Shown one piece after another: positions 2,352 to 19,873 of a stretch of DNA of 20,000 nucleotides; position 1 is the first letter of the stretch, and each line of letters begins with the position of its first letter. Under the pieces are notes generated by a model. That model saw nothing but the letters and a program-made list of their open reading frames with translations. It was not told the origin of the DNA and did not search any database. The stretch is taken from IMG/VR virus record IMGVR_UViG_3300049185_000041; one strand, 5' to 3'. This DNA comes from an uncultured virus (IMG/VR IMGVR_UViG_3300049185_000041) (lineage: Duplodnaviria > Heunggongvirae > Uroviricota > Caudoviricetes). The position numbers were made by a program, and so were the translations under genes.

Positions 2352-5300
2352 TCAATCCCGCTTGTTCAGCGATTTGCGGTTCGTCAAGGCTTTCGCCCGA
2401 TTCCGCAACGCCTGCCAAGCGGCTCGCCCGACAGATGTCGCCACGTTGTTCTTCGCCACCTCTTCGCCCTCGGTCGATCGCAGTCCAAGCCGGGTCTTCG
2501 CCACCTCGACGAGCCCGAGGAAGCTATCGGCGTTGTCCGGGGACCGGCCTTCCCTGTCCTTGTAACTCTTTTTTGGCTCGACTTTCAGCACTCTTGCGTC
2601 ACCTTCGCTCCCTTTCGCGTGCTGGCGGCTGCACAGCTCCTTGGCCAGTTCTTCATTGACGCCGCTGATCTGCCGCGACCGGAATAGCTTCTTCGCGCCA
2701 TACCACAGCTCGGTGGCCTTGTTCGCAAACCGTTCGTGGGCCAGCACCGGTTCGGTGGTGCCGGGCTTCTTGCCGGGCTTCTTCTCGCCCGTGGGCGTCT
2801 TCGAGGCAGGGCCTGCGGAGGTGATGCCGAGCACCGCTGGTGACCACTGCACCTTCACGATGTCGCCGAACGGTTGGCCGCCTCCAGTGGAGTCGTATCC
2901 AGCGTTCTCGGGCTTGATGCCGCGGGCGATGCACATCGCCTTCCAGCCGCGCACGATCTGATAGCTCGGCGGGACGTTGACGTCGTTGACATTCACCTTC
3001 ACCGCCTCGCCGCCGGTACGCACCAGACGCATGACACCGTCGATGTCCTCGCCGCACAGGCCGAAGGTCGCGTACGCGCGGTCACCGCCGGCCGTGAACG
3101 CCGGGTCGAGGAAGCTGCACTTCTCTGGCGGCCGGAACCCCCACACCACGTCGTCGGGAGACTGGCGGGCCCCGGACAATTCGATGTCGGCCGGGGTGTA
3201 GATGCCGGATCCCGCACCGGAAAGGCACCACGTCCCAAGCACCATCCGGTGGTAGAACAGCGAGTCGCGGCCATAATCCTTCTCCATCTGGTCAATCTCG
3301 GCCTTCCGGAGCATCCACGAGTAGCGGTCGTTGCCCTCGGTGATGCGGGGGTTTTTCTCCCCGTTGAAACGAATGCACAGGCCCCCGGACTCGGTCCTCC
3401 ACTCCTCATCACGGATCAGATCGACCTTGTCCCAGCCGCCTTCGGGCTTGGCGGCGAGCCCGAAGGTGTCGTAGGGCAGGTTCGGGTTCCCCAGATAGAT
3501 GACTTGGCAGTGCCCGACATTGCCGGGCTTGAGGTTGGTCTTGACCGCGGTCAGCACCGCCTCGGCGACGCCGGTCGCCTCATCGACGATCAGGATGATC
3601 TTGCCGATCCGGTCCTGGCTGATGTTGTAGAGTCGGGGAACGAGGTCGCGCAGCGTGGCCTCGTCGAAGTGATTGGCGAGGTCCGCGAACTCGGGGTGAG
3701 CCATCAGCCCTTCGAAGCTTTCGTCCGGCTCCCCGGTGCGGGGTGCCTTCATGCCGATGAGCTTGTTCACCGCTTCCTTCTCGGACCCTTGCTCGGCGGC
3801 GAGCAGGAAGATGCCGGTCGATTCCCCGAAGCTGTCGCCCTTGTAGTTGAGCCCGCGAATTTCGTTGGTCGCCCACGCGGGTTTGCCGGGCAAGAAAGGG
3901 ATTCCTTCCCAGTACTCGCGCACGGTCTTCCAGATGCGCTTCTTCGCCTCCTTGATCGAGGTCGACATCACCAGCACCAGCGTGTGCGTCGGATCGGTCG
4001 TGTAGCTCACGACGCCGTAGAGGGCGGCAGGGTCACTGTTGTGGACGACGGTGAAGTCAGCGAGCAGGAAACGGTGGTTACCGTCGACGGAGAAGCCGAC
4101 CCACGGCATATCCCCGGCGGGGGTGAGTTTGACCCCCGTGCAGTCCGAGTTCTGCCTGAGCTTTTTCTCGCGGCACTTCTTCCGGAGCGTCGGGATTTCG
4201 ACGACGTTACCGAAGATCGTGATGCGCCACGAAGGGAACTGCTTGCCTTGGCAGGTCGCCATCCGATGCACCGTCGAGACCCGGAATCCTAGTGACCGAG
4301 CGAGGAACGCGATGTCGTCCTTCAGCCCGGTGAACTTTGTCGCGATCTCGAAGTAAGTCCCTGCGGCATGTCCGTCGGTGTCGATCAGGCCTGCGAGGAG
4401 AAGCATCCGGTTTTTCCGGGAGTTCAGCAGGTAGTGGCGGGGGATCCGCTTCTCCATGTCATCCATCGACGACTTCAGAAACCGCCACAACGGATTGTTA
4501 GACATTCCGGCCGAAACATCACCTTCAGGGAAAACGGCGAAGGTCGGGCAAGTGAGATGCTCGTGGTCATACTCACGCATCTCGTAGCCCTCGTGCTCGC
4601 ACCATGCTTTCACATAGCTGAAAACCTCGGGTTCCGACCGCGGGATCGAGATCCGACACCGATGGCGCGCGCCGTCCCCCAGCCAGATTCCAAACAAGCG
4701 CGGATCCAGTTCGAGTTTCTTCTCGGGGAAATCGACACCAACGCAGAACTGCTTGTAATTGGTGCGGGTTTGTCCACTAGCCGTGTGGTAGTCTTTTGCG
4801 GGTATCTCAATGATCTCTCCGAGACGTCGGCGACTCCTCCCCGAAGCGATCGCTCTCTTCAGGACCAACACATGATCCTCCGTGCAGAACCACGGTTCGC
4901 CGTGGACCGGGGTCACCTTAAACATCGGCCCGACACCGGAATGCACCTCTTGCACGATCCGGGGCGCACTGTCGTCGCCCATCAGGCGATCTCCGGGCTT
5001 TACTTCATCCGCACGCTTGGTAGAACCGTCGTGCATTAGCACTAAGTCGTTGACTGACAAGCACTTACCCGCACTCGTGCATCCTGCGACGCATAGCTCC
5101 GGCTCCTCGCACATCTTCCGGAACATCCGGTTCGCCCAAGGGTTCCAGATGCACCGCTTCATCGACCCCGATGCGGGGTTGTTCCACGTCAGATCTACGT
5201 ATCGCTGGAAGTGGCTAAAACGCCCCAGCCCGCCCTCGTGCTCCTCGTGGCCGATGCGGAAGCACAGCGCCTCGATCTGGATCTGGTCACGGGTGCGATC

Positions 5301-5393
5301 CCCGGTGAGCTGGAAGTAATCCTCGCCGAAGCCGAGGCGCTGGAGGCCGTACCACTGGAGCGGCGGTTGGTCGGGTGCGGGTGCGACGGGCAT
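2352..5393 (-). CDS. terL: Terminase large subunit containing an intein (1013-aa precursor, ~671 aa after splicing)
   Basis: Walker A GCTSAGK/S is split by the intein. Also Walker B IILIVDEA, coupling motif YLGNP, and RNase H-like nuclease motifs FLDPAFTAGGD and SPDNADS. Confidence 0.85.
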   Translation of the reverse strand: MPVAPAPDQPPLQWYGLQRLGFGEDYFQLTGDRTRDQIQIEALCFRIGHEEHEGGLGRFSHFQRYVDLTWNNPASGSMKRCIWNPWANRMFRKMCEEPELCVAGCTSAGKCLSVNDLVLMHDGSTKRADEVKPGDRLMGDDSAPRIVQEVHSGVGPMFKVTPVHGEPWFCTEDHVLVLKRAIASGRSRRRLGEIIEIPAKDYHTASGQTRTNYKQFCVGVDFPEKKLELDPRLFGIWLGDGARHRCRISIPRSEPEVFSYVKAWCEHEGYEMREYDHEHLTCPTFAVFPEGDVSAGMSNNPLWRFLKSSMDDMEKRIPRHYLLNSRKNRMLLLAGLIDTDGHAAGTYFEIATKFTGLKDDIAFLARSLGFRVSTVHRMATCQGKQFPSWRITIFGNVVEIPTLRKKCREKKLRQNSDCTGVKLTPAGDMPWVGFSVDGNHRFLLADFTVVHNSDPAALYGVVSYTTDPTHTLVLVMSTSIKEAKKRIWKTVREYWEGIPFLPGKPAWATNEIRGLNYKGDSFGESTGIFLLAAEQGSEKEAVNKLIGMKAPRTGEPDESFEGLMAHPEFADLANHFDEATLRDLVPRLYNISQDRIGKIILIVDEATGVAEAVLTAVKTNLKPGNVGHCQVIYLGNPNLPYDTFGLAAKPEGGWDKVDLIRDEEWRTESGGLCIRFNGEKNPRITEGNDRYSWMLRKAEIDQMEKDYGRDSLFYHRMVLGTWCLSGAGSGIYTPADIELSGARQSPDDVVWGFRPPEKCSFLDPAFTAGGDRAYATFGLCGEDIDGVMRLVRTGGEAVKVNVNDVNVPPSYQIVRGWKAMCIARGIKPENAGYDSTGGGQPFGDIVKVQWSPAVLGITSAGPASKTPTGEKKPGKKPGTTEPVLAHERFANKATELWYGAKKLFRSRQISGVNEELAKELCSRQHAKGSEGDARVLKVEPKKSYKDREGRSPDNADSFLGLVEVAKTRLGLRSTEGEEVAKNNVATSVGRAAWQALRNRAKALTNRKSLNKRD
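4038..5063 (-). mobile_element. Intein with LAGLIDADG homing endonuclease (342 aa) inside the terL Walker A motif
   Basis: Starts CLSVNDLVLMHDGS after AGK, has block B FCTEDHVL and LAGLIDADG motifs LFGIWLGDG and LLAGLIDTDG, and ends FTVVHN followed by Ser(+1). Confidence 0.93.
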
Positions 5394-5791: not shown

Positions 5792-6117
5792 CTCTTTTTC
5801 GGCGGATGCCGGAATCCGTTCGCGCCGGGCACGATGATCTTCGGCCCCGGATCCTCGACCGGTTTGAGCAATTCGTCGTCGACGAACGCCGGCGACAGCG
5901 GGCCGTGTTCGCGCTGGATGCCGATGACCCACGTCGCCACTTCCTCGCGGCAGGTCTGCGCCGGGTTGCCGGTGCGCTTCATCTCGAAGAGGATCAGCTT
6001 GCGCAGCGAATAGACGAAGCGCGGCGGGGCGTGGAGATCGACGAGTGCACCCAATAAACAGGCGTCGTATGCTTCCGCGAGGCGCGCGGCCTGGGGTTCT
6101 GGAGTCTGATCGGTCAT
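5788..6117 (-). CDS. Hypothetical protein (109 aa)
   Basis: MTDQTPEPQAARLAEAYDACLLG...; ATGA overlaps at both ends. Confidence 0.65.
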   Translation of the reverse strand: MTDQTPEPQAARLAEAYDACLLGALVDLHAPPRFVYSLRKLILFEMKRTGNPAQTCREEVATWVIGIQREHGPLSPAFVDDELLKPVEDPGPKIIVPGANGFRHPPKKR

Positions 6118-6332
6118 TCGGGCGAGGAGTCGGAAGTGGGTTCGGGCGGTGGTGGCTGCGTGGCGGCGATCCGCTGCTCGATCATCGTGCCGATGCTGGC
6201 GATTGCTTCGGCGCGGGTCGGTGCCGTGGCTTCGCCGACGGGGATCACGCCGCGGGTGTAATCGTGGACCTTGGCCAGCACGATGTCGCCGTCGTCGATC
6301 AGCTCGATATTGAATTTGCGTCGGTTCGTCAT
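6114..6332 (-). CDS. Hypothetical protein (72 aa), weak HicB-N-like pattern
   Basis: ATGA-coupled. GEATAPTRAEAIASIGTMIE resembles the G.T.EEA...I motif of HicB N-terminal domains (weak). Confidence 0.55.
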   Translation of the reverse strand: MTNRRKFNIELIDDGDIVLAKVHDYTRGVIPVGEATAPTRAEAIASIGTMIEQRIAATQPPPPEPTSDSSPE

Positions 6333-6646
6333 ACGTCAAAAGCGTCTCCGTCGTAGCCGTGGGTCACGACCGGGGTCTCATCGCCCGTGGTGTGCTTGGC
6401 CATCTCGACCGGCCACGGTTTGTTGCGGATCTTGTAGTAGGCCGCCCGCAGCGAGCGTTCGGCGACATCGGCAGGTTCGAGGTTGCCCTTCGAGACGACC
6501 TGCCGCACCGAGGCCGCGACCTCGTGCCCGCGTTCAACGAGACCGCGCACGATCCATGCGTACGGCACCCACTGCCCGTGGGTGGCACGGTAGCGGGGTT
6601 CGCCAAGACCTTTGGCGATCTCTTTGATCGCTGCATCAATGTTCAC
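6329..6646 (-). CDS. Hypothetical protein (~105 aa), possibly DNA-binding
   Basis: ORF 6329..6682. The track's TTG start coincides with a -35 box, so GTG at 6646 (MNIDAAIKEIAK...) is the likelier start. Confidence 0.6.
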   Translation of the reverse strand: MNIDAAIKEIAKGLGEPRYRATHGQWVPYAWIVRGLVERGHEVAASVRQVVSKGNLEPADVAERSLRAAYYKIRNKPWPVEMAKHTTGDETPVVTHGYDGDAFDV

Positions 6647-6653
6647 GGCCGTA

Positions 6654-6682
6654 AATGTGTAGCGATGTAGCCGCCGGGTCAA
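6654..6682 (-). promoter_or_regulatory. Sigma70-like promoter, near-leaderless, overlapped by a GCTACA direct repeat
   Basis: TTGACC (6682-6677), 17-nt spacer, CACATT (6659-6654), then 7 nt to GTG. Confidence 0.5.
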
Positions 6683-6687
6683 GTATC

Positions 6688-6726
6688 AAAAGAAACCCCG
6701 CCGCCGGACGAACCGGGGGCGGGGTT
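6688..6726 (-). terminator. Rho-independent terminator
   Basis: GC-rich stem AACCCCGCC-C-CCGG / CCGG-C-GGCGGGGUU followed by UCUUUU on the minus strand. Confidence 0.8.
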
Positions 6727-6756
6727 GTTAGATTCACGCCAATGAATCGAAACTCA
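6688..6756 (-). ncRNA. Candidate antisense sRNA complementary to the CACGCCA(A)UGAA start-codon motif
   Basis: Minus strand reads GAGUUUC-GAUUCA-UUGGCG-UGAAUC-UAAC-AACCCCGCCCCCGG-UUCGU-CCGGCGGCGGGGUU-UCUUUU. It is bounded by a promoter and an intrinsic terminator and contains no plausible ORF. Confidence 0.7.
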
Positions 6757-6762
6757 GGCTGG

Positions 6763-6791
6763 AGGATGCGCCGGGGTGGCGGGGTTGTCAA
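6763..6791 (-). promoter_or_regulatory. Sigma70-like promoter for the candidate sRNA
   Basis: Consensus TTGACA (6791-6786, overlapping the upstream stop codon), 17-nt spacer, CATCCT (6768-6763). Confidence 0.65.
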
Positions 6792-7489
6792 CCTCCGGCT
6801 TTCGGGTCCCCACCGGTTCCGAAGGCGTCAGTTCCCGCGTCGCGGTTGTACGCCTGCTGACCGGCGTCGTCCATCCGAGGGTGGTCGCTAGCGACCGTGA
6901 ACCGGGGCTCCTGGTCCGGATAGACGTGCCTGCTGAGATCAAGCATCCACTGCACGACGCGCTGGACCTCGGCTTCGGACGGCGGGGCGGTATCGCTCAC
7001 GAAGTCGCCCATCGGATTGCTCTTGCGCTTCGCGAGGCATCCGTCGAGGAACTCTGCGAGGATGAAGTCCGATGTCTTGAGTTCGACGTCCTTCGAGTGA
7101 CAGTTCAGGACGAGCGCGAGGTCTTGCTTGAACGTGGTGCGGCTGGGCCGGACGACCGGCCTCACGCAGTTCGCGACGTAGCGCCATGCGTCGGCTTGCT
7201 TCTGCTTGTTCGGGTCGGCGGCAAACTCGTCCCACGTGGGCAGTTTGTCACCGTTGTAAGCCACGCCTCCGACGCCGGCAGAATAGGCCGAGTAGAGGTA
7301 GCTCGCGATTGCCTCGGTGTCGCCGCCTGCGACCTCGGCGAACTTCAGGGTGGTGATTGCCTGCCGGATCTCCGCGGCCTTGGTGGCGCAGAGGTCCGCC
7401 TGTTCGATGTTCCCTTCCTTGCGGTGGATGGGCTCGTTGTTCCCCAGCGTGGAGAGTGTGATTTCGAGTTCAGCGATTGCGTGTTTCAT
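6788..7489 (-). CDS. Hypothetical phage protein (233 aa), apparently a composite of small domains
   Basis: Segments LYSAYSAGVGGVAYNGDKLPTWDEF and FKQDLALVLNCHSKDVELKTSDFILAEFLDGCL resemble recurring small phage domains. Co-oriented with its neighbours. Confidence 0.7.
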   Translation of the reverse strand: MKHAIAELEITLSTLGNNEPIHRKEGNIEQADLCATKAAEIRQAITTLKFAEVAGGDTEAIASYLYSAYSAGVGGVAYNGDKLPTWDEFAADPNKQKQADAWRYVANCVRPVVRPSRTTFKQDLALVLNCHSKDVELKTSDFILAEFLDGCLAKRKSNPMGDFVSDTAPPSEAEVQRVVQWMLDLSRHVYPDQEPRFTVASDHPRMDDAGQQAYNRDAGTDAFGTGGDPKAGG

Positions 7490-8987: not shown

Positions 8988-9199
8988 GTCATCTCGTCGA
9001 ATTTCTTCATTACCCGTTCCCACCAGTCCCGGATGTCCAGCACTCCGCCGAACCGGGTTGGCTCGCCCGCCGCCTCCACCGCATCACGGAATTTCTTCCG
9101 GGCAGCGGAGCGGGCCTCTTCAACGACTCCTTTCTCGACGGCTTCGATCAGCGCGAGTTCGGCCGCGGTGGCTTTCGATTTCAGTTCTGCGAGGGTCAT
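8984..9199 (-). CDS. Hypothetical protein (71 aa)
   Basis: Helical charged ORF with ATGA overlaps at both ends. Confidence 0.65.
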   Translation of the reverse strand: MTLAELKSKATAAELALIEAVEKGVVEEARSAARKKFRDAVEAAGEPTRFGGVLDIRDWWERVMKKFDEMT

Positions 9200-9588
9200 G
9201 GGCTTCCGGTGCGCGGGATGTTACCGATCGGGCCGACCTGCTCTGCCGTGCGTGTCACCTTCAGGATTCCCTTGATGGTGAACTGGCGTCGAGCCTCGTG
9301 GCTGCGGGTGAGCTTCTTCCCGCGGCCGTTCTCGTTATACGGCTGGACGGTGACCGTGCCGAAGTGCTGGTAGCCGCGCATGACGTGGCCGCCCGAAACG
9401 GAAATTACGATGCCCTTGCAGTAGCGCCGGGATCCATCGACGACCTCCACTTCATCGCCACCGCGGATGCCGAAGAACTCCTCGGTGACCTTGCGGGCCT
9501 CGCGATTATTGGCTTCCCTCACCGCCTGCGCGGCGGCATCGGACTTCGTCAGTTCCCGGAGACGCCGGGTCGCTTCACGTTTCGTCAT
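9196..9588 (-). CDS. Hypothetical basic protein (130 aa), possible SH3/KOW-like C-terminal half
   Basis: First gene after a promoter and preceded by TCACGCCC-ATG; beta-rich pattern IRGGDEVEVVDG...KGIVISV. Confidence 0.65.
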   Translation of the reverse strand: MTKREATRRLRELTKSDAAAQAVREANNREARKVTEEFFGIRGGDEVEVVDGSRRYCKGIVISVSGGHVMRGYQHFGTVTVQPYNENGRGKKLTRSHEARRQFTIKGILKVTRTAEQVGPIGNIPRTGSP

Positions 9589-9600
9589 GGGCGTGACAGC

Positions 9601-10920: not shown

Positions 10921-10929
10921 GAGGTGGGG

Positions 10930-10958
10930 AAAATAGCTAGGCTATTGGCTAGAGTCAA
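10930..10958 (-). promoter_or_regulatory. Sigma70-like promoter of the recombinase, near-leaderless
   Basis: TTGACT (10958-10953), 17-nt spacer, TATTTT (10935-10930), then 9 nt to ATG. Confidence 0.75.
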
Positions 10959-11020
10959 TGGGGATTCGCTACATTACTACACATTTACGGTAGGGGCTGG
11001 GTAGGGTAAATCGAGGTATA

Positions 11021-11068
11021 CCAGTCTGCCAGTCTGCCAGTCTGCCAGTCTGCCAGTCTGCCAGTCTG
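11021..11068. repeat. Tandem octamer (CCAGTCTG)x6
   Basis: Six perfect copies read directly from the sequence. Confidence 0.97.
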
Positions 11069-11637
11069 CAAGTGTAGCGGTGTAGCGGACTACGGGTGAG
11101 GGATTGCGGGGATTTTGGAAGGCGGTGAGCGCCCCGGAATCGCGCTCTGGCGGTGGGGCCGCCCCCTCCCCGGGGTGGTGGGTGCGCCCTAGCGCCGCGC
11201 ATCACCGGCTCGCCTCTCCCCCGCCACAGGGTCCGCGCCAATCCCTCGCACTGGTAGCATTGCGGGCCAGCCATGACACAGGACCAATGCTCGGGGGCAT
11301 TAGCCTATTTCGTGAAACTGGCTAGAGACTGGCTTGCGACCATGCCGGCCCGGCGCTAGGGCGCATAGGATTTGCATGCAAACAGGCGGTGCGCCGGCTC
11401 GCTGGCCCCACTGCTCCGAGCAAGCGGGCGCACCGTTATATATTTCGATATATAAGGCGTGGATCGAGCCCGCCGCACCACCTCACCCCCTCAAAACCGA
11501 TTCCCCGGACTTTGTCCTGCAAAGTTCCAAAATGGCGCGTCAGGTCGGCCCGCGACCATTAATTGCAAATGCAACTAACTTACCATTTCAGGTATTCCGG
11601 GAAACCCCGTTTCCACCCTCCACCACCCCATTTCGAG

Positions 11638-12038
11638 CTGGTAAACTCGGACTGGTAAACTCTGCCAGCTAGTCTGCCAGTTTACCACTCTACCACGAAA
11701 AACCCGAGAACTCTACACCTCTACACCGCCTCGACCATTTCGCTCGATTTGTAGCAGTGTAGAGAAGTCCCCGGAACGCTGGCAGCCTGCCAGACTGGTA
11801 AACTCTCCAAAAGCATGACAGTAGAGTTTACCACATATCACGCCCATTTTCGATTGATCTACGATCTGTTCCATTTCAATCACTTACGAACTACCATCAA
11901 CTACTCTAATTGTCTTTTTGGTAAACTGGTAAACTGGTAAACTAAAGTATTAATATTGGGGGAAAAATATAGAGGGAGAGGATTTGAAAAAATCCCCAGA
12001 AAAAAGAAAGTCCGGCCTCCGAGTCTGCCACTCTGCCA
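11638..12038. repeat. Cluster of TGGTAAAC / TGGCAGAC octamers in both orientations, including (TGGTAAAC)x3 at 11919-11942
   Basis: Copies near 11639, 11653, 11672 (rev), 11680 (rev), 11796, 11826 (rev), 11919-11942 and 12023 (rev). Confidence 0.9.
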
Positions 12039-12073
12039 ATCCTCCAATCTGTAGCAGTGTAGGAGTTGATTCA

Positions 12074-12120
12074 TTTTTCGCGAAAAAAGAATTGCGGTCT
12101 GTTTCCGGCGGGTGTATTCA
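12074..12120 (+). promoter_or_regulatory. Promoter of the rightward (early-like) arm
   Basis: TTGCGG (12092-12097), 17-nt spacer, TATTCA (12115-12120). Preceded by the palindrome TTTTTCGCGAAAAA (12074-12087) in the UP-element position. Confidence 0.55.
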
Positions 12121-12145
12121 TTCCCCCGTCAATCGAAACACGCCA

Positions 12146-12328
12146 ATGAAGACGCTCGAAACCACCCTCTCCGCCATCGCCTACGCACTGCAAACCCCGC
12201 AGCGCGCCCGCCTCCGCCGCAATATTCGCGGATGGATTGGAAAAGCCATCAAAGCCGGCCCCCGCTCTCCGGAATGGGAGTTTGTCGCCAAGTGGAGCTT
12301 CGAACTCCGCATGCTGGAAATCCGCTGA
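12146..12328 (+). CDS. Hypothetical protein (60 aa)
   Basis: MKTLETTLSAIAY...; start defined by CACGCCA-ATG. Confidence 0.65.
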   Translation: MKTLETTLSAIAYALQTPQRARLRRNIRGWIGKAIKAGPRSPEWEFVAKWSFELRMLEIR

Positions 12329-12356
12329 CCTAGAAACCGCTTACCTCACGCCAATC

Positions 12357-12788
12357 ATGAAACACCCCGCCACCTTCGGCCAAGTTCTGCAAGCCATCAA
12401 AGCTTCAGACCTTTGGGACTTCTCACAGGAGTATTCACAAGGCCGGTTTTCCGTTGCCGTCTTCCATGACGATTTCCCGAAAGACCGCCGGCACGTTTAC
12501 CGGATTGAATGGCACCGCGACAACCGGAAGCCTCGCGTCAATCTAACCGTGCTTCGGAAATTCGATGCCGTGAAAAATTGCTGGAATGAGACCGTCCATG
12601 CCGAAAGCGGGTCTTGGTCTCTCCCGGACAAGCGCGGCGAGAAAGCCCTTGTCGGCTTCATTAAGGAAACCAGCAAGCGCCACGGCAAAGCCCCCAACCC
12701 GTCGTTCTTCTCTTTCCACCGCGCCACGGAAGACCGGGTCGCCATGGAGGAAGCCAATCTCGCGAAAGCCTTTCAAGGGCGTCTCTGA
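12357..12788 (+). CDS. Hypothetical protein (143 aa)
   Basis: MKHPATFGQVLQAIK...; start defined by CTCACGCCAATC-ATG. Confidence 0.7.
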   Translation: MKHPATFGQVLQAIKASDLWDFSQEYSQGRFSVAVFHDDFPKDRRHVYRIEWHRDNRKPRVNLTVLRKFDAVKNCWNETVHAESGSWSLPDKRGEKALVGFIKETSKRHGKAPNPSFFSFHRATEDRVAMEEANLAKAFQGRL

Positions 12789-12817
12789 TTCCCCGCAACC
12801 TCTTACTCACGCCAATC

Positions 12818-13063
12818 ATGAAAACAGAAGCCAGTCCGAAGTTCCGCAATAAAAACGGCACCCTTACAGCCTACGCTTTCGCTTGCGGCTACCTTGAGAC
12901 CCGCGAAAAGAATGGTGTTAAAGTCACCCTTGAGCGGGACTCCGCATGCTGGCACGTCAAGACGTGGGACAGCGTGGAAAAGGTCCGCCGCGCATGGGAA
13001 AGCGTCACCCTTCTAACGGACGCTCGGAAGGAATTCCGGCGGCAGTGCAAAACCTTTCTCTAG
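12818..13063 (+). CDS. Hypothetical phage protein (81 aa)
   Basis: CTCACGCCAATC-ATG start; contains GTLTAYAFACGYLE. Confidence 0.75.
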   Translation: MKTEASPKFRNKNGTLTAYAFACGYLETREKNGVKVTLERDSACWHVKTWDSVEKVRRAWESVTLLTDARKEFRRQCKTFL

Positions 13064-13101
13064 CCCTCTCCTCCCCGCCAGCCGCGCACGCCCGGCCTCC
13101 C

Positions 13102-13164
13102 GCTTTCCTTGCATTGGCGTGCAATAGACTCACCTGCCCTTGGCCTAGCCGGGGGCGGGTCGAG
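13102..13164 (+). ncRNA. Second copy of the anti-start-motif RNA element
   Basis: GCUUUCC-UUGCA-UUGGCG-UGCAA-UAGACUC-ACCUGCCCUUGGC-CUA-GCCGGGGGCGGGU-CGAG; same loop and two-hairpin layout as 6688-6756. Confidence 0.6.
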
Positions 13165-13234
13165 CCGGCGGGAGAACAGGGGTATGACGCCCCGGTCTCG
13201 CCGCAGTCCAGAAAACCAGTAAAATTCGCACGCC

Positions 13235-15088
13235 ATGAAGAATCCCGACCTATTCGACGAACGCCACGAAGCGACCTATTGCCCGGAAGACGACAAGTTG
13301 CGCCTCTACGTCGGTCGCGTCCCCCGCGACCAGTACGAAGCCCTACGCGCCGAAGGGTGGACCAGCACACCGAAACAGGATTGCGACTTTGCGGCGGTCT
13401 GGACGGTGGACCGTGAGAACACCGCGCTTTCCTTTGCCGGGGTGATTGGCGACGAGGACCAGAGCCCGCAGGACCGCGCCGCCGACCGCGCCGAACGCTT
13501 CGCCGGCTACCGGGACAAGCGCACCATGGAAGCCGGTGGCCACGCTGACCGGTACGACGCCGGGCCGTCCGCGCATGGCTATCAATCGCAAGCCCGTGCC
13601 GACCGTGCCGCCGCCCGGCATGACCGCATCGCCGACCGCGCTGTCAATGCATGGGACAAGGCGGACTACTGGACAAGCCGCACCGCTGGGGTGATTTCGC
13701 ACGCGCTGTACCGGTCTCGCCCCGATGTTCGCATGGGGCGCATCAAGGTCATTGAATCCGACCTGCGGAGGGCAAGCAAAGGCTTTGAGGATGCCGCGGA
13801 GCATCACCGCACGGTTGCCGCGATCGCCGCGGACCCCGACGGCGCGGCGATGGACCTTGTCCGCCGCTATTACAACGCCGCGGACCTCGCGCCGGAGGAA
13901 TTGGAGAACGTCCGCGACAAGGCCTCCAATGACCTGATTTCGGTCATTTGCGGACATGGCAAGGTGCGCAACCCATTGAACCCGGAAGCCCCGGCGGCCT
14001 ACCCCTTTGAGCATCGCCGCGAGGCGAACCCGCCCACGGTCTCGGACTACGCGAAACAGTGGCTCGCCGCTCACGCTGCCCCGGAAACCGACGCTTGGCA
14101 GATGACCGGAACGGCCCGGTACATCCGCCACTTGCAGCATCGCATTGCCTATGAAAATCAAATGCTGGAAGCGCAAGGCGGGCGGGAAGCTTTTACCGAA
14201 ATGGAAGCCGGCGGGATGCTCGGGACATACCTTGTCGTCCGGGTCTACAAGTCCCCGGCCACCGGTCGCGTGACTTCGGTCGATCTACTCCGCAAGGACA
14301 AGCCGACGGAACGCGAGTGGGGCGCGAAGAGGATCCCCGGCACGGATTTCTACCTTTGCCGGATTGACACGGAACGCTTGCCCGCCGGCACCTACGCCGC
14401 CCCCACGGATGAAAGCCGCGCTGAACTCGCCGCCCTGGATGCCGCGAAGAAAGAGCAACGCAAGGGAGCCGCGAAAGCCGCGCCGCTGGTCAATCCGACG
14501 TTGGAAGACGCGCAACGCTTGCAGGACCTCTTGAACGCCCGCCACCGGGCCGCATGGGTGAAGGTGCACGGCGAGCCGCGGGAAGGGTCCAGCCATCAGC
14601 CGGAACGCTCGGAGGTCTGCAAGGTGACGCAAGTGGTTTACTCCGCCAATTCCAAGGGGAGCTATTCCCGGGCGGAAACGGTGGAGTATTTCGCCGACGG
14701 TCAGGAACGCCGGAATCCCAGCCGCCGCGAGTCTCCGGTATGGGCACTCCGGCACGGCCCGGCAGTCTGCAAGCTCCGTGTCTCCGGCTACTCACCGCGC
14801 CGCGTGGTGTTCCTGACTGACAAGCCCGCCAAGGCCTTGCCCGCGGCGATCTGGTCCCCCTACCCGGACGCCCCGACGGCGGAGCAACTGCGGCCCCGTC
14901 TCGCTGAAATTCAAGCCGCCGTTTCCGCGGAGTATAACCGGCAGGACCTCACCCCGGAACAAGTGGACCTTTTGAACCGTTCGGCCGCGGTCGGCTGGAC
15001 CACGCATGAAAGCTACCGCCGCCAATGGACGGACGCCGGCATTGCGGAAGCCCGTGCCGCCGAAGTCATTGGCAAGGCCATCGTCTAA
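13235..15088 (+). CDS. DUF3560-like protein (617 aa)
   Basis: N-terminus ATYCPEDDKLRLY...PKQ...WT..RE...IGDED.S...RA..RAERF.GY..KR and HGYQSQARADR...KADYW resemble DUF3560 proteins of mobile elements; lies next to a methyltransferase. Confidence 0.7.
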   Translation: MKNPDLFDERHEATYCPEDDKLRLYVGRVPRDQYEALRAEGWTSTPKQDCDFAAVWTVDRENTALSFAGVIGDEDQSPQDRAADRAERFAGYRDKRTMEAGGHADRYDAGPSAHGYQSQARADRAAARHDRIADRAVNAWDKADYWTSRTAGVISHALYRSRPDVRMGRIKVIESDLRRASKGFEDAAEHHRTVAAIAADPDGAAMDLVRRYYNAADLAPEELENVRDKASNDLISVICGHGKVRNPLNPEAPAAYPFEHRREANPPTVSDYAKQWLAAHAAPETDAWQMTGTARYIRHLQHRIAYENQMLEAQGGREAFTEMEAGGMLGTYLVVRVYKSPATGRVTSVDLLRKDKPTEREWGAKRIPGTDFYLCRIDTERLPAGTYAAPTDESRAELAALDAAKKEQRKGAAKAAPLVNPTLEDAQRLQDLLNARHRAAWVKVHGEPREGSSHQPERSEVCKVTQVVYSANSKGSYSRAETVEYFADGQERRNPSRRESPVWALRHGPAVCKLRVSGYSPRRVVFLTDKPAKALPAAIWSPYPDAPTAEQLRPRLAEIQAAVSAEYNRQDLTPEQVDLLNRSAAVGWTTHESYRRQWTDAGIAEARAAEVIGKAIV

Positions 15089-15137
15089 CACCAACCCCCG
15101 GCGGCGGGGCTCCGGTCTCGCCGCCACTTCTCACGCC

Positions 15138-15809
15138 ATGAACCCGCCCGACCTCTCCCGCCTCCACACCCTCCGCGATGCCAATGATTTGCACGCGGCC
15201 ACCATGGAGTTAAACCGCGGACGCTTCGAAGCCCTCCGCACTCGCCATGAGGACGGCACCGCGCCGCGTGCGGTCTCCGCATACCAGCTTTTCCAGACCC
15301 CGCCGGCACTGGCGGCCCGCATGGTGGAGCTGGCCGAAGTAAAGCCCGGGGACGTGCTGCTTGAACCGTCCGCCGGTCTTGGCAGGATCATTGACCCGGC
15401 GCTTGCGGCGGGTGCCCGGGTCCTCGCCGTCGAGGTCTCGCCGGACCTTTCGGGCGAGCTTTTCCGGGCATACGAAGGGAAGGACGTGAGGCTATTGCAG
15501 CGCGACTTTCTGACCGTCCGGCCAGCCTATGAAGGCAACGCCGCGCTTATCGTGAAGGACCTCGCGGAAGTCCGCATTGACCGCGTGGTGATGAACCCGC
15601 CGTTTCACATGCGGGCGGACATTGCCCACGTAAGGCACGCGCTGCGATTCCTCCGCCCCAGTGGCGTCCTGGTCGGCTTGTGCCTGTCCACCCGCCACCG
15701 CACGGAAGCCCTGCAACCGCTCGCCGACCTGTGGGAAGTCATTCCCGCCGGGACGTTCAAGGGCGAGGGCACGAACGTCGAAACGGTCTTGTTCCGCATC
15801 ACTGGCTAA
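15138..15809 (+). CDS. SAM-dependent methyltransferase, N6-adenine DNA MTase-like (223 aa)
   Basis: QLFQTP, motif I LLEPSAGLG, AVE, DFL and catalytic motif IV VMNPPF; start at CTCACGCC-ATG. Confidence 0.85.
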   Translation: MNPPDLSRLHTLRDANDLHAATMELNRGRFEALRTRHEDGTAPRAVSAYQLFQTPPALAARMVELAEVKPGDVLLEPSAGLGRIIDPALAAGARVLAVEVSPDLSGELFRAYEGKDVRLLQRDFLTVRPAYEGNAALIVKDLAEVRIDRVVMNPPFHMRADIAHVRHALRFLRPSGVLVGLCLSTRHRTEALQPLADLWEVIPAGTFKGEGTNVETVLFRITG

Positions 15810-15822
15810 CATCCGCACGCCA

Positions 15823-15876
15823 ATGAAAACGCATCCAACACCACTCCCGGTCTCCATAACAGAAATCACGCCATGA
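15823..15876 (+). CDS. Possible 17-aa minigene MKTHPTPLPVSITEITP
   Basis: Has its own CACGCCA-ATGAA motif, and its stop overlaps the next ATG (ATGA). Confidence 0.4.
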   Translation: MKTHPTPLPVSITEITP

Positions 15877-16187
15877 AAACCTTTTACTTCAATACGGGCG
15901 TCCGGCCCCACGCTCACACGCCCCCGGTCAAATTGAGCCCCGGGCAAGTCATGAGGGGCGGCACGATGCAAATACCTTTCGACTGTGAGGGCGTGCCTGA
16001 GGGTGCGACCTTCGACCACGGAAGCGACAATCCGGAGCCCGGATACCCGGGCGAGATTGTCCGCGAGATCCACAACTCCGCCTTGGTCTCGAAATACGCG
16101 CACTTCCGCCCGCCGGTCTCCCCGGAGCCACACCCCTACGTCCAGAAGTCACTCCGCGGGGAGCAACCCAGCCACCCTTGGAAGTAA
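15873..16187 (+). CDS. Hypothetical protein (104 aa)
   Basis: ATCACGCC-ATG start. Confidence 0.7.
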   Translation: MKTFYFNTGVRPHAHTPPVKLSPGQVMRGGTMQIPFDCEGVPEGATFDHGSDNPEPGYPGEIVREIHNSALVSKYAHFRPPVSPEPHPYVQKSLRGEQPSHPWK

Positions 16188-16196
16188 CCCCTTTCC

Positions 16197-16264
16197 AACC
16201 CCCGCCCGGTCTCCGCAATGCACGGCCTTTGCATCCCAGCATGTAAGGGGCCGGGCGGGTTTTA
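16197..16264 (+). terminator. Long stem-loop followed by a U-tract (terminator-like or processing hairpin)
   Basis: CCCGCCCGGTCTC (16201-16213) pairs with GGGGCCGGGCGGG (16247-16259), followed by TTTTT. Confidence 0.5.
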
Positions 16265-16292
16265 AACCTCTCACCTGATAGAAATTGAAACC

Positions 16293-16694
16293 ATGAAACC
16301 GCACCTTAATATCCTGCTTTCCCTCGGAAACCCTATTCGCTCGAAATCCGGGGAGGCTATTGGGCTTTCCACCTTTCACCCGAATGAGAATCATCAACAT
16401 GGTGATGATCCGGCAGAGAATCCGTCGCAATGGGAAGAGACGGTTGCGGAAGTTCTCGACGGGGGTCCGCCGGGGGTCATGGAAGACCAAGCGGCCCGCA
16501 TCCGCGACACTTGGAACGCCTGCCACGGTCTCGACCTCCCGGCGGACGTGGAACCCGGCATCCTCGCGGACCTTGTGATGGTCTCCGGGGACATGGTGCG
16601 GAGCATCGGGGATGATTCCCTGACAGTTTACCATGGAACCAAGCTCGCGAACCTCCTTGCCAAGCTCGCACCGGTCTCCCCGTCGCCGCAATGA
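16293..16694 (+). CDS. Hypothetical protein (133 aa), paralogous in part to 18812..19342
   Basis: Shares AC.GLDLP.D..PGILA.LV...LA..LAKLAP with the other gene. Confidence 0.7.
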   Translation: MKPHLNILLSLGNPIRSKSGEAIGLSTFHPNENHQHGDDPAENPSQWEETVAEVLDGGPPGVMEDQAARIRDTWNACHGLDLPADVEPGILADLVMVSGDMVRSIGDDSLTVYHGTKLANLLAKLAPVSPSPQ

Positions 16695-16786
16695 CCCCCT
16701 CCCCCGAAATCCCGTTTGCTCGTTCCATTGCCGCATGCATCGCGGCCGGCTGGGGCGTCATTTGTGCCGCGATGCTGTATCTCTAA
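16691..16786 (+). CDS. Small hydrophobic protein (31 aa; not in the ORF track)
   Basis: MTPSPEIPFARSIAACIAAGWGVICAAMLYL*; ATGA overlap; fills the intergenic gap. Confidence 0.55.
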   Translation: MTPSPEIPFARSIAACIAAGWGVICAAMLYL

Positions 16787-16797
16787 CACCTCACGCC

Positions 16798-17055
16798 ATG
16801 AAAGGAAAGCCGTTCAACTACCCGGGGAGGGTTTCCCGCAAAACAAAGGTTCATTCCTTTTGCAGTCAAATGCGCCGGAAGCTGGTCCGCTCGGGAACTC
16901 TCAATCTCGCCACCGGCAAAACGGACCTGCCTAATGAGGAGTGGCGGGATGAACCATGTGGAACCCCGCTTTTCACGGACGGGGAGCGCCAATCCGGAAT
17001 CTGCAAATCATGCGCCGGAGGATGGACGCACCCGGAAAACTCCCTGCTGCCATGA
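16798..17055 (+). CDS. Hypothetical Cys-containing protein (85 aa), possible zinc ribbon
   Basis: CTCACGCC-ATG start; HSFC...PCG...GICKSC. Confidence 0.7.
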   Translation: MKGKPFNYPGRVSRKTKVHSFCSQMRRKLVRSGTLNLATGKTDLPNEEWRDEPCGTPLFTDGERQSGICKSCAGGWTHPENSLLP

Positions 17056-17195
17056 ACCGCCCCCGCCGCGCCGCCCTTCACCGGGGCATCCTCCACGCCC
17101 TGCCGCTGTCCATTATCCTGTGGGGCGGTCTCGCCGGGGCCGCCTATGCCGTCACCCGCGTCATTCTGACAATCACGAACCAATTCACGCCATGA
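17052..17195 (+). CDS. Small single-TM protein (47 aa)
   Basis: MNRPRRAALHRGILHALPLSIILWGGLAGAAYAVTRVILTITNQFTP; ATGA overlaps at both ends. Confidence 0.65.
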   Translation: MNRPRRAALHRGILHALPLSIILWGGLAGAAYAVTRVILTITNQFTP

Positions 17196-17440
17196 ATACC
17201 CAGATGCAATCCCAGGTCGCCGCAAAGCTGACCGAACTTAAAGCCGGTCTCCCCTCCACCGTGGAGAAGATCGAAACCGAAATCCGCCAATGGCGGGAGA
17301 CTCGCGACTACTGCCGCGACAAAGGCAACAAGTCGGCGGCGGAAGACGCGGAGGCTGCCGCCGTCGCGTTCATTGAAATCCTGCCGCCCCGCGTCAAGGC
17401 GGACTACACCGCCCCCGCTTGGATGTACGGTAGACTCTGA
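17192..17440 (+). CDS. Hypothetical protein (82 aa)
   Basis: MNTQMQSQVAAK...; TTCACGCC-ATG start. Confidence 0.7.
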   Translation: MNTQMQSQVAAKLTELKAGLPSTVEKIETEIRQWRETRDYCRDKGNKSAAEDAEAAAVAFIEILPPRVKADYTAPAWMYGRL

Positions 17441-17482
17441 CCGGCTTCCCGGTCTCCATTTAATCGCTAACAACCTCACGCC

Positions 17483-17797
17483 ATGAAAACGAAAGTCATC
17501 TTCCGCAAGTTCAAATCCGACGGCGAGATCCTCGCCCTGTTTCCCGAAGTCCCGCACGACCGCATGGGGGACTTCTGTGTCAGCTACGCCCACGTAGGGC
17601 AGCACGGGGCCGCGAGCCCGGTCTTGACCGGCACCACGAGCCCGGCAACCCCGGAAGAGAGCGCACCGCTTAAGCGCGAAATCGAAAGCCTTGGGTATGA
17701 CCTGGAAGTCTGCCGGCGGGTTTCGTTCAAGATGGACAAGGCACGCCGGGAAGCCGCACGCCAAAACCGCAACCCTAGCCCGGTCCCCACGCCATGA
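17483..17797 (+). CDS. Conserved-looking phage hypothetical protein (104 aa)
   Basis: VIFRKF...GEILALFP...SYAHVGQHG...ATPEE..PLKREIESLGY, a pattern I recall from phage early regions; motif start. Confidence 0.8.
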   Translation: MKTKVIFRKFKSDGEILALFPEVPHDRMGDFCVSYAHVGQHGAASPVLTGTTSPATPEESAPLKREIESLGYDLEVCRRVSFKMDKARREAARQNRNPSPVPTP

Positions 17798-18540
17798 ATG
17801 CAACCCTTTCACTTCCGACCATGGACAAGCCTCCCGTCTCTTCCCTCCGCACGCTCTCCGGCATCCGCAAGGTGGCCGATTGGCTTAAGCATCGTGCCGA
17901 CTCCGGCCAATGCCCGGAGACCTGGAAGCCGGGCGTCACGCCGCCGGTCTCGTTCGGCCCGTTCAAGATCCACGACAACATCACGGCCCTCTGGCGGGCT
18001 GCCGAGCTACTGCGAAGCAATGCCACCTACTCCGGGTCTCGCGGCAGCACGGCGATCCCCGATAGCGTGTGGAGTCTGCAAGCCGTCCGCGCCTACGGCA
18101 GCCCGGAAGCCGGTCTCGCGGCCATCCGGCGGCAGCTTGCCATTCAAGCCTGTGACATGGACCCGGCGGACGTGAAGCGATGCGAACGGGCCGCATGCAT
18201 GATCGAGCGGCACCTTGCGGAAGAGGCCGAATTGAAACGCGACATGGAAGAGGCGGAAGCGGAGGCCGCGGTGTTCAAGGCCGCCCGGCCAGCAGACCCG
18301 GACGCCCCGCCGACCATCGGCAGCACGGTTTACGTTTCAGCCGCGGGCCGCGCATGGAAAGGAACCGTGCTGGGGGTAGCTAACAAGCGCGATGCCGTCC
18401 TGGGGAAGACAGTCCCGCATGTTCAAGTTCAGCTTACCCATCGCCGGGAAACCGATGGCCGGAAGATCTACGGCTTCCACCCCGGCAAGGGTCTCGTGAA
18501 ACGCTGGGAGCCCTGCCGCTACGTCCTAGTTCCATCCTAG
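17794..18540 (+). CDS. Hypothetical protein (248 aa)
   Basis: CCCACGCC-ATG start with ATGA overlap; C-terminal SH3-like pattern IGSTVYVS...WKGTVLGV. Confidence 0.7.
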   Translation: MNATLSLPTMDKPPVSSLRTLSGIRKVADWLKHRADSGQCPETWKPGVTPPVSFGPFKIHDNITALWRAAELLRSNATYSGSRGSTAIPDSVWSLQAVRAYGSPEAGLAAIRRQLAIQACDMDPADVKRCERAACMIERHLAEEAELKRDMEEAEAEAAVFKAARPADPDAPPTIGSTVYVSAAGRAWKGTVLGVANKRDAVLGKTVPHVQVQLTHRRETDGRKIYGFHPGKGLVKRWEPCRYVLVPS

Positions 18541-18811
18541 CCCGGTCTCCCGGCCACCCCATCGCATGCGCCCCGCTCCCGGTGACACGGCAGCGGGGCA
18601 AAGGGGTGATGAAAGGCAACTCCATGAAGTGACCCCATAGCAGCCGGGCTGTGAGCCGGCACGCAAAGCCCCGGACAACCGGGCAACTATGACCCTGATT
18701 AATCGCCGCCCCGCGCAAGGGGAGAATCCGAACCGCCTCCGGCTGCCATCGTGCGGCCGGGGGCTCCGGCAGTAGAGGCCATCCCGGTCTCGCTTGAACC
18801 ATACTCACGCC

Positions 18812-19342
18812 ATGAAACTCGGAGCTTACAGACAGAACGACACCACGATCAATCTATTGGACCGCGACACCGGAGAGGACGTCGCCTCCCGCGCCCATGA
18901 ACCCGGGAAAGAGGATGAGACTTATGAAGCCCTCATGCCCCTCTGCAACGCCGTCTCCGCCTGCGATGGCCTCGACCTCCCGGAAGACTGTCCGCCGGGC
19001 ATCCTTGCGGAACTTGTGACCGCCGCCCGCGAGCTTGCCAACACCATTACCGGCTTCGGGATGAAATGCCCGAACGTCCCTATCCGGGTCGAAGGGGAGA
19101 CCCTTGCGGCCATCCTCGCCAAGCTCGCGCCCGCCGGCAGCCCGGACAACGGGAAGCCGGTCTCGCCGCCGGAGCCTCGCCCACAACTCCCCTTCGAAAA
19201 AGAAGTGCTGAATCCGGACGGCACCTTCAAGGCCGGACTCGGAGACACCACTGAGCCCACGGAATCCGGCGTCCGCTATCCCGAAGGGCAACCCAGCGGT
19301 CACGGTCACACGCCGCTGGAACACCGCATTGCCAACTACTGA
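18812..19342 (+). CDS. Hypothetical protein (176 aa), paralogous in part to 16293..16694
   Basis: CTCACGCC-ATG start; shared GLDLP/PGILA/LAKLAP module. Confidence 0.7.
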   Translation: MKLGAYRQNDTTINLLDRDTGEDVASRAHEPGKEDETYEALMPLCNAVSACDGLDLPEDCPPGILAELVTAARELANTITGFGMKCPNVPIRVEGETLAAILAKLAPAGSPDNGKPVSPPEPRPQLPFEKEVLNPDGTFKAGLGDTTEPTESGVRYPEGQPSGHGHTPLEHRIANY

Positions 19343-19456
19343 AACTCTCCGGGAGCCCCGATGGGAACTCGCCCTTCAAGGAGGGCAGGAACTGGGACGG
19401 AAGTCCGGTTCACGGGGCTCCCGGTCTCCACTCTCACCAATAGAAATCACGCCACT

Positions 19457-19873
19457 ATGAACACGAAACAATTCTCGCTCGCACAAGTCCTCTCCATCAC
19501 CACTAGCCGCCTTTGCTGCGACATGGGCAGCATCTACGAGATACTGAACCACATCACCGGGGACAACCTCTTCACGCATGTCCTGCCGCGTGCTGCAAGG
19601 TTCGCCGCCCCTCTCATTCTTGAGGACCACCCGGAACTCAAGCCCGCGGGCGCGTGTCTCGACAGTTTGGACCGCTGGCTGGCCAGCGACCGGACTCCCG
19701 AGAAAAGCGAGGGCATTAAAATGTGGCTCGCCGAACTCCGGATGATGTTCCCGGACATCAAGCCGGAATATGAAATCCGAAGCTACTCGGACGCATGGCT
19801 GTCACTGAACCCGCTCGATGAACTGGCTGCGATGGCAGGGCCGGAGAAGATCGTCGTAGTCGAGAAAGCCTAA
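19457..19873 (+). CDS. Conserved-looking phage hypothetical protein (138 aa)
   Basis: FSLAQVLSITTSRL...IYEILNHITGDNLFTHVLPRA; ATCACGCCACT-ATG start. Confidence 0.8.
   Translation: MNTKQFSLAQVLSITTSRLCCDMGSIYEILNHITGDNLFTHVLPRAARFAAPLILEDHPELKPAGACLDSLDRWLASDRTPEKSEGIKMWLAELRMMFPDIKPEYEIRSYSDAWLSLNPLDELAAMAGPEKIVVVEKA

Follow-up and report, generated by a model that had tools for sequence, protein, structure and literature searches.

Why does a 100-bp gap between two leftward genes carry, folded as a hairpin, the complement of a motif that marks the start codons of genes in the opposite arm? The question arises at positions 6688 to 6791 of a 20,000-nt stretch of DNA from an uncultured virus record (IMG/VR IMGVR_UViG_3300049185_000041), hereafter the window, in which leftward and rightward genes form two divergent arms. 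An initial annotation of the window had read the gap as a stand-alone small RNA (sRNA) gene whose hairpin is antisense to the start codons of 13 right-arm genes. We find that the hairpin, its terminator, and its complementarity to these starts are as annotated, that the gap is best read as the 3' end of a leftward messenger, and that an antisense function is a tentative reading.

The motif, (T)TCACGCC(A)ATGAA, which we call the tag, occurs as CACGCC-(0-4 nt)-ATGAA at 13 of the 15 rightward open reading frame (ORF) starts called, those at 16293 and 17052 being untagged. All 13 gene-start tags are on the plus strand (span 12139-19461; ATGs of the tagged ORFs at 12146-19457). AA directly follows the ATG in every one of them, and the spacing between CACGCC and ATGAA is variable (0, 1, 3, or 4 nt). 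CACGCC followed after 0-4 nt by ATG was counted 14 times on the plus strand (the 13 rightward gene starts and a copy at 6735) and twice on the minus strand. With at most one mismatch, TCACGCCATGAA has 8 matches against 0.10 expected, and at least 8 were obtained in 0/200 shuffles; TCACGCCAATG has 7 against 0.52 expected, likewise with 0/200 shuffles giving as many. A start-codon motif shared by 13 right-arm genes, as initially annotated, therefore stands far above shuffles, and all the matches cited for it were recovered: CACGCCAATGAA, exact, at 12139-12150 and 15816-15827, ATTCACGCCATGAAT at 17183-17197, and TCACGCCAAT at 12346 and 12807.

From left to right, the tags belong to the first rightward gene (12146-12328; tag CACGCCAATGAA at 12139-12150), to genes 12357-12788 (tag at 12347-12361) and 12818-13063 (12808-12822), to the DUF3560 gene 13235-15088 (13229-13239), to the methyltransferase gene 15138-15809 (15132-15142), and to a 17-codon mini-ORF, 15823-15876, whose tag at 15816-15827 is again CACGCCAATGAA. 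They continue with genes 15873-16187 (15867-15877), 16798-17055 (16792-16802), 17192-17440 (17186-17196, with palindrome arms of 5 nt), 17483-17797 (17477-17487), 17794-18540 (17788-17798), and 18812-19342 (18806-18816) and end with the DUF7736 gene 19457-19873 (19448-19461). Relatives of the methyltransferase align from residues 1 to 6 of the 15138 start, in agreement with the start that the tag defines. The mini-ORF overlaps the next tagged gene (15873) by ATGA, and further rightward ATGA overlaps are found at 17052/17055, 17192/17195, and 17794/17797.

A Shine-Dalgarno (SD) core (GGAG, GAGG, or AGGA within 20 nt) was found at 0/15 rightward starts, so the right-arm mRNAs are SD-less as the initial annotation stated, and at 3/14 mechanically called leftward starts, all three of them GTG or TTG calls. 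The last 20-30 nt of the rightward leaders are predicted to be unpaired. Since these leaders are predicted to be unpaired and have no SD core, the tag itself is likely the initiation determinant of the rightward genes. A reading of the tag as a leaderless promoter was rejected on inspection, as the hexamers ending at -7 differ between sites. Of the two minus-strand copies, the one at 9595 marks the ATG of gene 9196-9588, the sole tagged leftward gene (tag-like CACGCCCATGA, 9585-9595), and the other (13121) is intergenic and at chance level. The 171-nt leader of the DUF3560 gene contains an anti-tag-like word, CATTGGCGTGC (13112-13122, plus strand), a motif match at chance level; in the minimum free energy (MFE) fold, this word pairs with the gene's own tag (13228-13234).

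We then examined the copy that lies outside the right arm. The plus strand of 6732-6747 reads ATTCACGCCAATGAAT, an exact tag oriented as the rightward gene tags, with 12 nt identical to 12139-12150 and 15816-15827. At up to 3 mismatches, its 16-mer is expected 0.12 times, and our own estimate for a tag copy of such quality is ∼0.003 per window; judged by these sequence expectations, the extra copy is not there by chance. It also differs from the gene-start tags in symmetry, its palindrome arms measuring 6 nt versus 2-3 nt at 12 tags and 5 nt at 1 tag. Read on the minus strand, the copy forms an 18-nt hairpin (GAUUCAU-UGGC-GUGAAUC, 6748-6731) with a stem of 6-7 bp and a loop of 4-6 nt (UUGGCG), the RNA of which is the complement of the start tag, so that the core is indeed the reverse complement of the tag, as first described. 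The copy shares its strand with all the target tags, and RNA made from the minus strand would be an anti-tag. Since local transcription runs leftward, against the orientation of the tag, the hairpin RNA would be antisense.

The hairpin is followed on the minus strand by a strong intrinsic terminator, again in agreement with the first description. Its G+C-rich stem-loop (6694-6726; 14 pairs, one C-C mismatch, and a 5-nt loop) runs immediately into the U-tract UUUCUUUU (6688-6695), which has one more A/U (an A behind 6692) in a related strain introduced below; the plus strand offers a weak T-run only. The 85-nt minus-strand fold comprising hairpin and terminator has an MFE of -34.3 kcal/mol (z -3.27), with 1/200 shuffles as good. 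The exact hairpin 18-mer was not found in viral contigs. Searches with the flanking proteins in viral contigs, metagenome contigs, and proteins gave no relatives with the intergenic region of the hairpin besides the one related strain; they yielded partial-domain relatives, and three close homologues are known as proteins only.

The gene upstream of the hairpin (6788-7489, minus strand) clarifies what kind of RNA this is. It encodes a 233-aa protein of no named family (G+C content at third codon positions, 0.82) with 5 homologues among 5.8 billion proteins, three of which (P0001, P0002, and P0004) end in ...VDNPxxPAHPPx. We found by tblastn that 6792-6757 encodes in frame -3 the C-terminal tail of these three proteins, VDNPATPAHPPA, 100% identical to the tail of P0002. 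Together with its TGA stop (6756-6754), this orphaned stretch of 12 codons (6754-6792) is the ancestral end of the gene, whose present stop is the TGA at 6790-6788. The two frames are separated by a 124-nt insertion/deletion (6792-6915) that shifts the frame of the gene's 3' end: DNA contigs of runs X2 and X3, identical to the window, carry the 124 nt, and related-strain contigs (runs X17 and X18) join 6791 directly to 6916. The alignments thus identify an ancestral C terminus recently orphaned by a frame-shifting insertion. The indel alters the C terminus of the 233-aa protein between strains and lengthens its 3' untranslated region (3'UTR).

The hairpin begins 6 nt past the ancestral stop, and the terminator begins 4 nt past the hairpin. 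The ancestral stop lying this close, hairpin and terminator therefore form a 3'UTR, the end of a leftward transcription unit, and 6688-6792 is, on its sequence, the 3' end of a leftward messenger rather than a separate gene. The initial annotation had instead proposed a ∼70-nt unit fired from its own intergenic promoter, TTGACA-17-CATCCT. The hexamers are present (6791-6763), but TTGACA (6791-6786), in which the present stop is embedded, corresponds to Val-Asp-Asn codons and CATCCT (6768-6763) to His-Pro codons of the ancestral tail, and because this tail is conserved in three relatives, we regard both as old coding sequence and not as an intergenic promoter. CATCCT moreover matches TATAAT at 3/6 positions, and a generic sigma-70 scan does not list the site; the host, too, is probably not one that uses the classical consensus. 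An independent sRNA gene exerting the same antisense action from this promoter still has in its favor the 17-nt spacing of the hexamers, and promoters within 3' coding ends are known for some 3'UTR sRNAs; against the codons of the conserved tail, the scan, and the probable host, we consider such a gene distinctly improbable and did not retain the stand-alone unit.

The tag at 6735 could also serve the strand on which it is written, by launching translation of a small antisense ORF (6742-6891, 49 aa). In support of this, 14 of the 15 other exact CACGCC-N0-4-ATG copies mark a gene start in their own orientation, and the rightward intergenic regions are laid out in the same way, with a tag after a G+C-rich hairpin. 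However, we judge this ORF to be an Arg-rich shadow of the conserved gene on the minus strand; in the strain without the 124 nt, both its frame and its length would change; there is no plus-strand gene or promoter upstream; and a plus-strand RNA would have the AUG of this ORF buried in the hairpin. A plus-strand start is accordingly the least plausible of the specific explanations that we considered, and we rate it as highly improbable.

Because the site lies between a minus-strand gene and the terminator of that gene, an RNA carrying the complement of the tag is almost certainly made. To quantify its complementarity, we cofolded the 71-nt 3'UTR with 40-nt segments around the start codons. The energy gained on cofolding (ddG), which quantifies complementarity and not function, averaged -12.0 kcal/mol over the 15 rightward starts and -3.2 kcal/mol over 14 leftward starts, the tagged leftward start 9588 reaching -12.3 kcal/mol. 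Controls gave -6.0 kcal/mol (standard deviation [sd], 1.9) when the 30-nt head was shuffled 200 times and -6.0 kcal/mol (sd, 2.1) for 69 other minus-strand segments of 71 nt; 0/269 controls reached -12.0 kcal/mol. The complementarity between the hairpin RNA and the rightward starts claimed initially is exact, nonrandom, and thermodynamically meaningful.

Leftward transcripts ending at the terminator would all carry hairpin and terminator as their last ∼70 nt. The loop (UUGGCG) and the stem are jointly complementary to (U)UCACGCC(A)AUGAA(U), which spans positions -7 to +5 in the 13 rightward genes, and, less well, to the start of the leftward gene 9588. We propose that the hairpin loop would nucleate on the unstructured, G-poor rightward leaders, whereupon the A/U-rich stem would open and a duplex of 12-16 bp would bury the AUG, lowering translation of all the tagged genes while the leftward operon is active. 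The anti-tag RNA could act as an intact 3'UTR or as a processed 3' fragment. Leftward transcription across the site, in vivo pairing, and repression as its outcome are the inferred parts of this scheme, and we consider an anti-tag function exerted from the 3'UTR of the leftward gene to be possible but short of probable. The framing of the RNA as a phage early-to-late switch, which accompanied the initial annotation, found no support.

Terminator-proximal sRNAs of the 3'UTR-derived or prophage type, such as DicF, pair with the start regions of other mRNAs. Our candidate resembles them in being the terminator-proximal end of a longer mobile-element mRNA, with the hairpin between the stop and the terminator of its own mRNA, on the same strand. 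DicF-type sRNAs use a single-stranded seed to reach a small number of unrelated targets in the host, whereas here the seed is predicted to lie in a hairpin and to address an entire class of genes of the element itself, which have one tag in common. Loop-presented antisense RNAs and phage antisense repressors (CopA/CopT, RNAI/RNAII, and P1 c4) block a ribosome-binding region by duplex formation. With these the window shares a hairpin loop predicted to pair with its target; each of them is encoded opposite or beside its one target, whereas the window hairpin lies 5.4-12.7 kb from 13 targets. Unlike CopA and RNAI, it has a loop of only 4-6 nt, and the targets are not predicted to form a kissing partner hairpin. 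Phage T4 controls gene sets through RegA, a translational repressor, and RegB, an endoribonuclease that cuts early SD sequences. This is likewise class-wide control through a shared translation-start sequence, but the T4 effectors are proteins and the candidate effector of the window is RNA. As for initiation, SD-independent, Kozak-like starts have been described in Bacteroidia and some Verrucomicrobia in the parts of the literature that we consulted (PMC10783764, PMC6847099), and the window resembles these lineages in its G-poor, SD-less leaders and its probable reliance on AUG-adjacent nucleotides. A fixed 11- to 15-mer on one gene class is nevertheless far stronger than a bias of start context spread over a whole genome, and most leftward genes do not have it.

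The closest precedent for the tag is found in mycobacteriophages. According to the consulted sections of the original description, Start-Associated Sequences (SAS) are 13-bp motifs at 11-19 right-arm gene starts in Cluster K, and Cluster K1 genomes contain exactly one reversed SAS each, away from a gene start (Pope et al. 2011, PMC3203893); sections of a later paper report SAS in Cluster EF Microbacterium phages as well (Jacobs-Sera et al. 2020, PMC7302621). In the 2024-2025 texts, as far as consulted, the function of SAS is still called unknown. SAS and the window tag are both short, near-invariant, asymmetric motifs beside the start codons of 10-19 nonhomologous genes, confined in one orientation to the nonstructural arm and with a strong ATG preference. 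They differ in that SAS, located 3-9 nt upstream, include an AGGAG/GGA core with complementarity to the 3' end of 16S, whereas the window tag has no SD, touches or almost touches the ATG, and reaches into codon 2. It has no sequence relatedness to the SAS GGGATAGGAGCCC or GGGAAAGGACCCC.

We analyzed the odd SAS copy in phage Adephagia, where 17 forward SAS and 1 reversed SAS were found at up to 2 mismatches; one forward site (record 49749-49761) falls in the overlap of loci L023 and L024. The reversed SAS (record 58682-58694) lies in the 432-bp gap between genes 92 and 93, reported in the portion of the literature seen as the place where late transcription begins. Read on the transcribed strand, this SAS occupies the loop (10 nt) of a hairpin of ∼20 bp (131 nt, -71 kcal/mol, z -7.15). 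The hairpin region is present in 131 phage records; among 9 sampled phages, a 12-nt loop segment is invariant in 7, and compensatory changes are seen in 6 of 37 stem pairs. Our analysis thus presents the Cluster K reversed-SAS hairpin as an independent parallel to the anti-tag of the window. The geometry is different: the odd copy of the window is co-oriented with the tags but sits in an opposite-strand operon, and that of Cluster K is reversed. In the papers searched, we found no account of the reversed-SAS hairpin as an RNA element. Neither "antisense" nor "small RNA" appears in PMC3203893, and "antisense" is also absent from PMC12699233. The Adephagia hairpin occupies record positions 58661-58713 (L024 9662-9714), and a second conserved hairpin lies immediately upstream of it (L024 9615-9653).

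This comparison qualifies the novelty first claimed for a start tag matched by an sRNA: start tags had already been described, as SAS, and what stood is that no RNA regulator had been tied to them. What is new here is an SD-less tag abutting the ATG and the presentation of the complement by a hairpin in two unrelated systems. More generally, one may imagine tag/anti-tag regulons in which a start label marks a whole gene class and one hairpin-presented complementary RNA shuts off or retunes that class, the window and Cluster K being two independent inventions. We regard this generalization as rather doubtful, and the same doubt attaches to its corollary that the complementary RNA is placed at the end or the beginning of an opposing or later transcription unit. 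If true, the idea would explain the purpose of SAS, an open question since 2011, and would describe a compact posttranscriptional switch for mobile elements, of a design usable in hosts without Shine-Dalgarno sequences. Should the single complementary copy prove to be the ligand, at least 12 unrelated genes would come under the control of one small RNA via a built-in address. The Cluster K parallel makes the idea testable in phages of Mycobacterium smegmatis.

Several observations weigh against the antisense function proposed for the window hairpin. The stem locks away most of the anti-tag, leaving 4-6 nt exposed, and a single RNA would need to titrate all 13 start sites. In Cluster K, the loop of DarthP is degenerate though its SAS consensus is unchanged, so that loop and tag do not covary there, and SirPhilip has lost the loop sequence. 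In Cluster EF, phage AnnaSerena carries 10 SAS, but allowing up to 2 mismatches turned up no reversed one, and its matches at 3 mismatches are at chance level. The RNA-library data consist of assembled related-strain contigs of 9 and 20.9 kb, which show neither strand, ends, nor level and may derive from DNA. Lastly, the tags coincide with mosaic breakpoints, and the stray copy could be a recombination scar.

The last point was pursued by comparison with the related strain, represented by contigs of 9,025 and 20,872 nt from two RNA-library runs, ∼93-96% identical to the window. Homology breaks at or next to the tags at 12153, 17196, 19453, and 9590. Tags therefore also mark module boundaries, and the alignments suggest that they serve additionally as linkers when modules are exchanged. 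A variant tag with an extra T occurs at least once in the strain (loose end at 18609). The hairpin might then be an inert 3'-end structure that only stabilizes the leftward mRNA or helps to terminate it, its identity with the tag being a scar of module shuffling by short homology linkers. The breakpoints and the adjoining 124-nt indel, a recent rearrangement at the hairpin site, agree with this explanation, and a 3' end with two hairpins requires no special cause. On the other hand, the hairpin copy does not lie at a strain breakpoint, 5798-6791 being colinear in both strains (over 994 nt, 41 substitutions and 7 gapped positions), and a perfect 6+6 palindrome, unique to this copy, is unexpected for a scar. 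We judge the inert structure to be somewhat unlikely.

The same palindrome raises the possibility that a protein of the element or of the host binds the tag and that 6731-6748 is a high-affinity DNA site, serving for instance in autoregulation or as a decoy. The sequence GATTCA-N6-TGAATC forms a perfect dyad like those bound by dimeric regulators, a minimal CA...TG dyad is present in all the tags and TCA...TGA in most of them, and for the Cluster K tags, Pope et al. left RNA or protein ligands open in the sections consulted (PMC3203893). The spacing of CACGCC and ATGAA nonetheless varies (0, 1, 3, or 4 nt), which a rigid dimer would not tolerate. The tags are strictly strand specific and abut the ATG, pointing to a role at the RNA level, and an RNA-binding factor would meet the complement of its site, not the site, in the leftward transcript. 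A protein-binding site is, in our view, quite unlikely, and the little that is left falls to chance or to something else. We keep the antisense reading as our working proposal.

The nature of the element itself was also revisited. The window has a G+C content of 62% and is present in runs labeled soil metagenome, 4 runs containing at least half of the sampled words and one of these being its possible source. Phage and plasmid records contained no near match to it, and a distant DNA search of phage records gave a single match, one DUF3307 gene. Recognizable genes are those for a BCS1-like AAA ATPase (closest clusters mostly viral, which we take as a lead only), a 1013-aa ORF with an intein, DUF3307, and a small serine recombinase and, in the right arm, DUF3560 with a DNA methyltransferase, and DUF7736. 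The 1013-aa ORF (2352-5393, minus strand) contains Hint residues 117-180 and a homing endonuclease domain (Hom_end) at 317-396. Terminase PHROG matches cover residues 98-453 and overlap the intein, for which reason a terminase identity was rejected; no named family matched the exteins, the C-extein giving a borderline PHROG of unknown function only. Since the terminase matches sit on the intein and the C-extein has no named family, neither the label of a packaging-gene arm nor that of a phage is supported. An actinophage identity, considered at first, was dropped as well. In the related strain, 4104-5085, within the 1013-aa ORF, is swapped for 442 other letters. Rfam at gathering score gave 0 matches over the whole window, and ARAGORN detected no tRNA in it.

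With regard to the host, a DUF3560-methyltransferase pair was found in 8 contigs of metagenome-assembled genomes and 5 IMG/VR contigs at 41-48% identity, and 5 of the 8 former are named Verrucomicrobia, Lentisphaeraceae, Victivallales, or Kiritimatiellia. The host is probably Verrucomicrobia-like and probably not an actinobacterium, as far as gene content indicates; this is a lead and not proof, because the 13 loci have only the DUF3560-methyltransferase pair in common with the window. The CACGCC tag is absent from these 13 loci; relatives of the module show looser, A/C-rich ...ACACC-ATGAA start contexts. Bacteroidota and some Verrucomicrobia are SD-scarce lineages according to the consulted part of PMC10783764, and the tag has the look of a start context typical of the lineage that has become hardened. 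The DUF3560-module relatives have strand-biased repeats of their own; in L006 and L008, for example, GGAGTCGGCGG-like words recur 12-17 times.

Other repeats were noted around the two arms. Downstream of the terminator, a gene of 105 aa starting from GTG (6329-6646, minus strand) is preceded by a 23-nt motif, GCTACATnnCTACACATTTACGG (6649-6671), which recurs inverted 4.3 kb away at 10968-10990 (21/23 identical); these inverted repeats bracket the serine-recombinase operon. The copy after the terminator (6671-6649) may be the next promoter, and the motif may represent a shared promoter/operator or recombination sites. The contigs do not support an invertible segment between the repeats, DNA contigs of run X2 being colinear across both, with no strand-changing joint listed. 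GCTACA/GCTACC words are also found before the leftward gene starts 2310, 5393, 8047, and 9588. In the right arm, CCGGTCTC, which includes the asymmetric hexamer GGTCTC, has 15 copies (13192-19428), all on the plus strand, against 1.44 expected on both strands (0/200 shuffles); the copies are located within genes as well as in intergenic hairpins, in many cases 25-42 nt ahead of a tagged ATG. Finally, the divergent arms are separated by a 1.2-kb noncoding center (10921-12138) dense in 8-bp direct repeats, with CCAGTCTG seven times in tandem (11021-11076), TGGTAAAC three times (11919-11943), and GTGTAGCG/CTCTACAC-type words, an arrangement reminiscent of iterons, of a centromere-like site, or of an array of operators.

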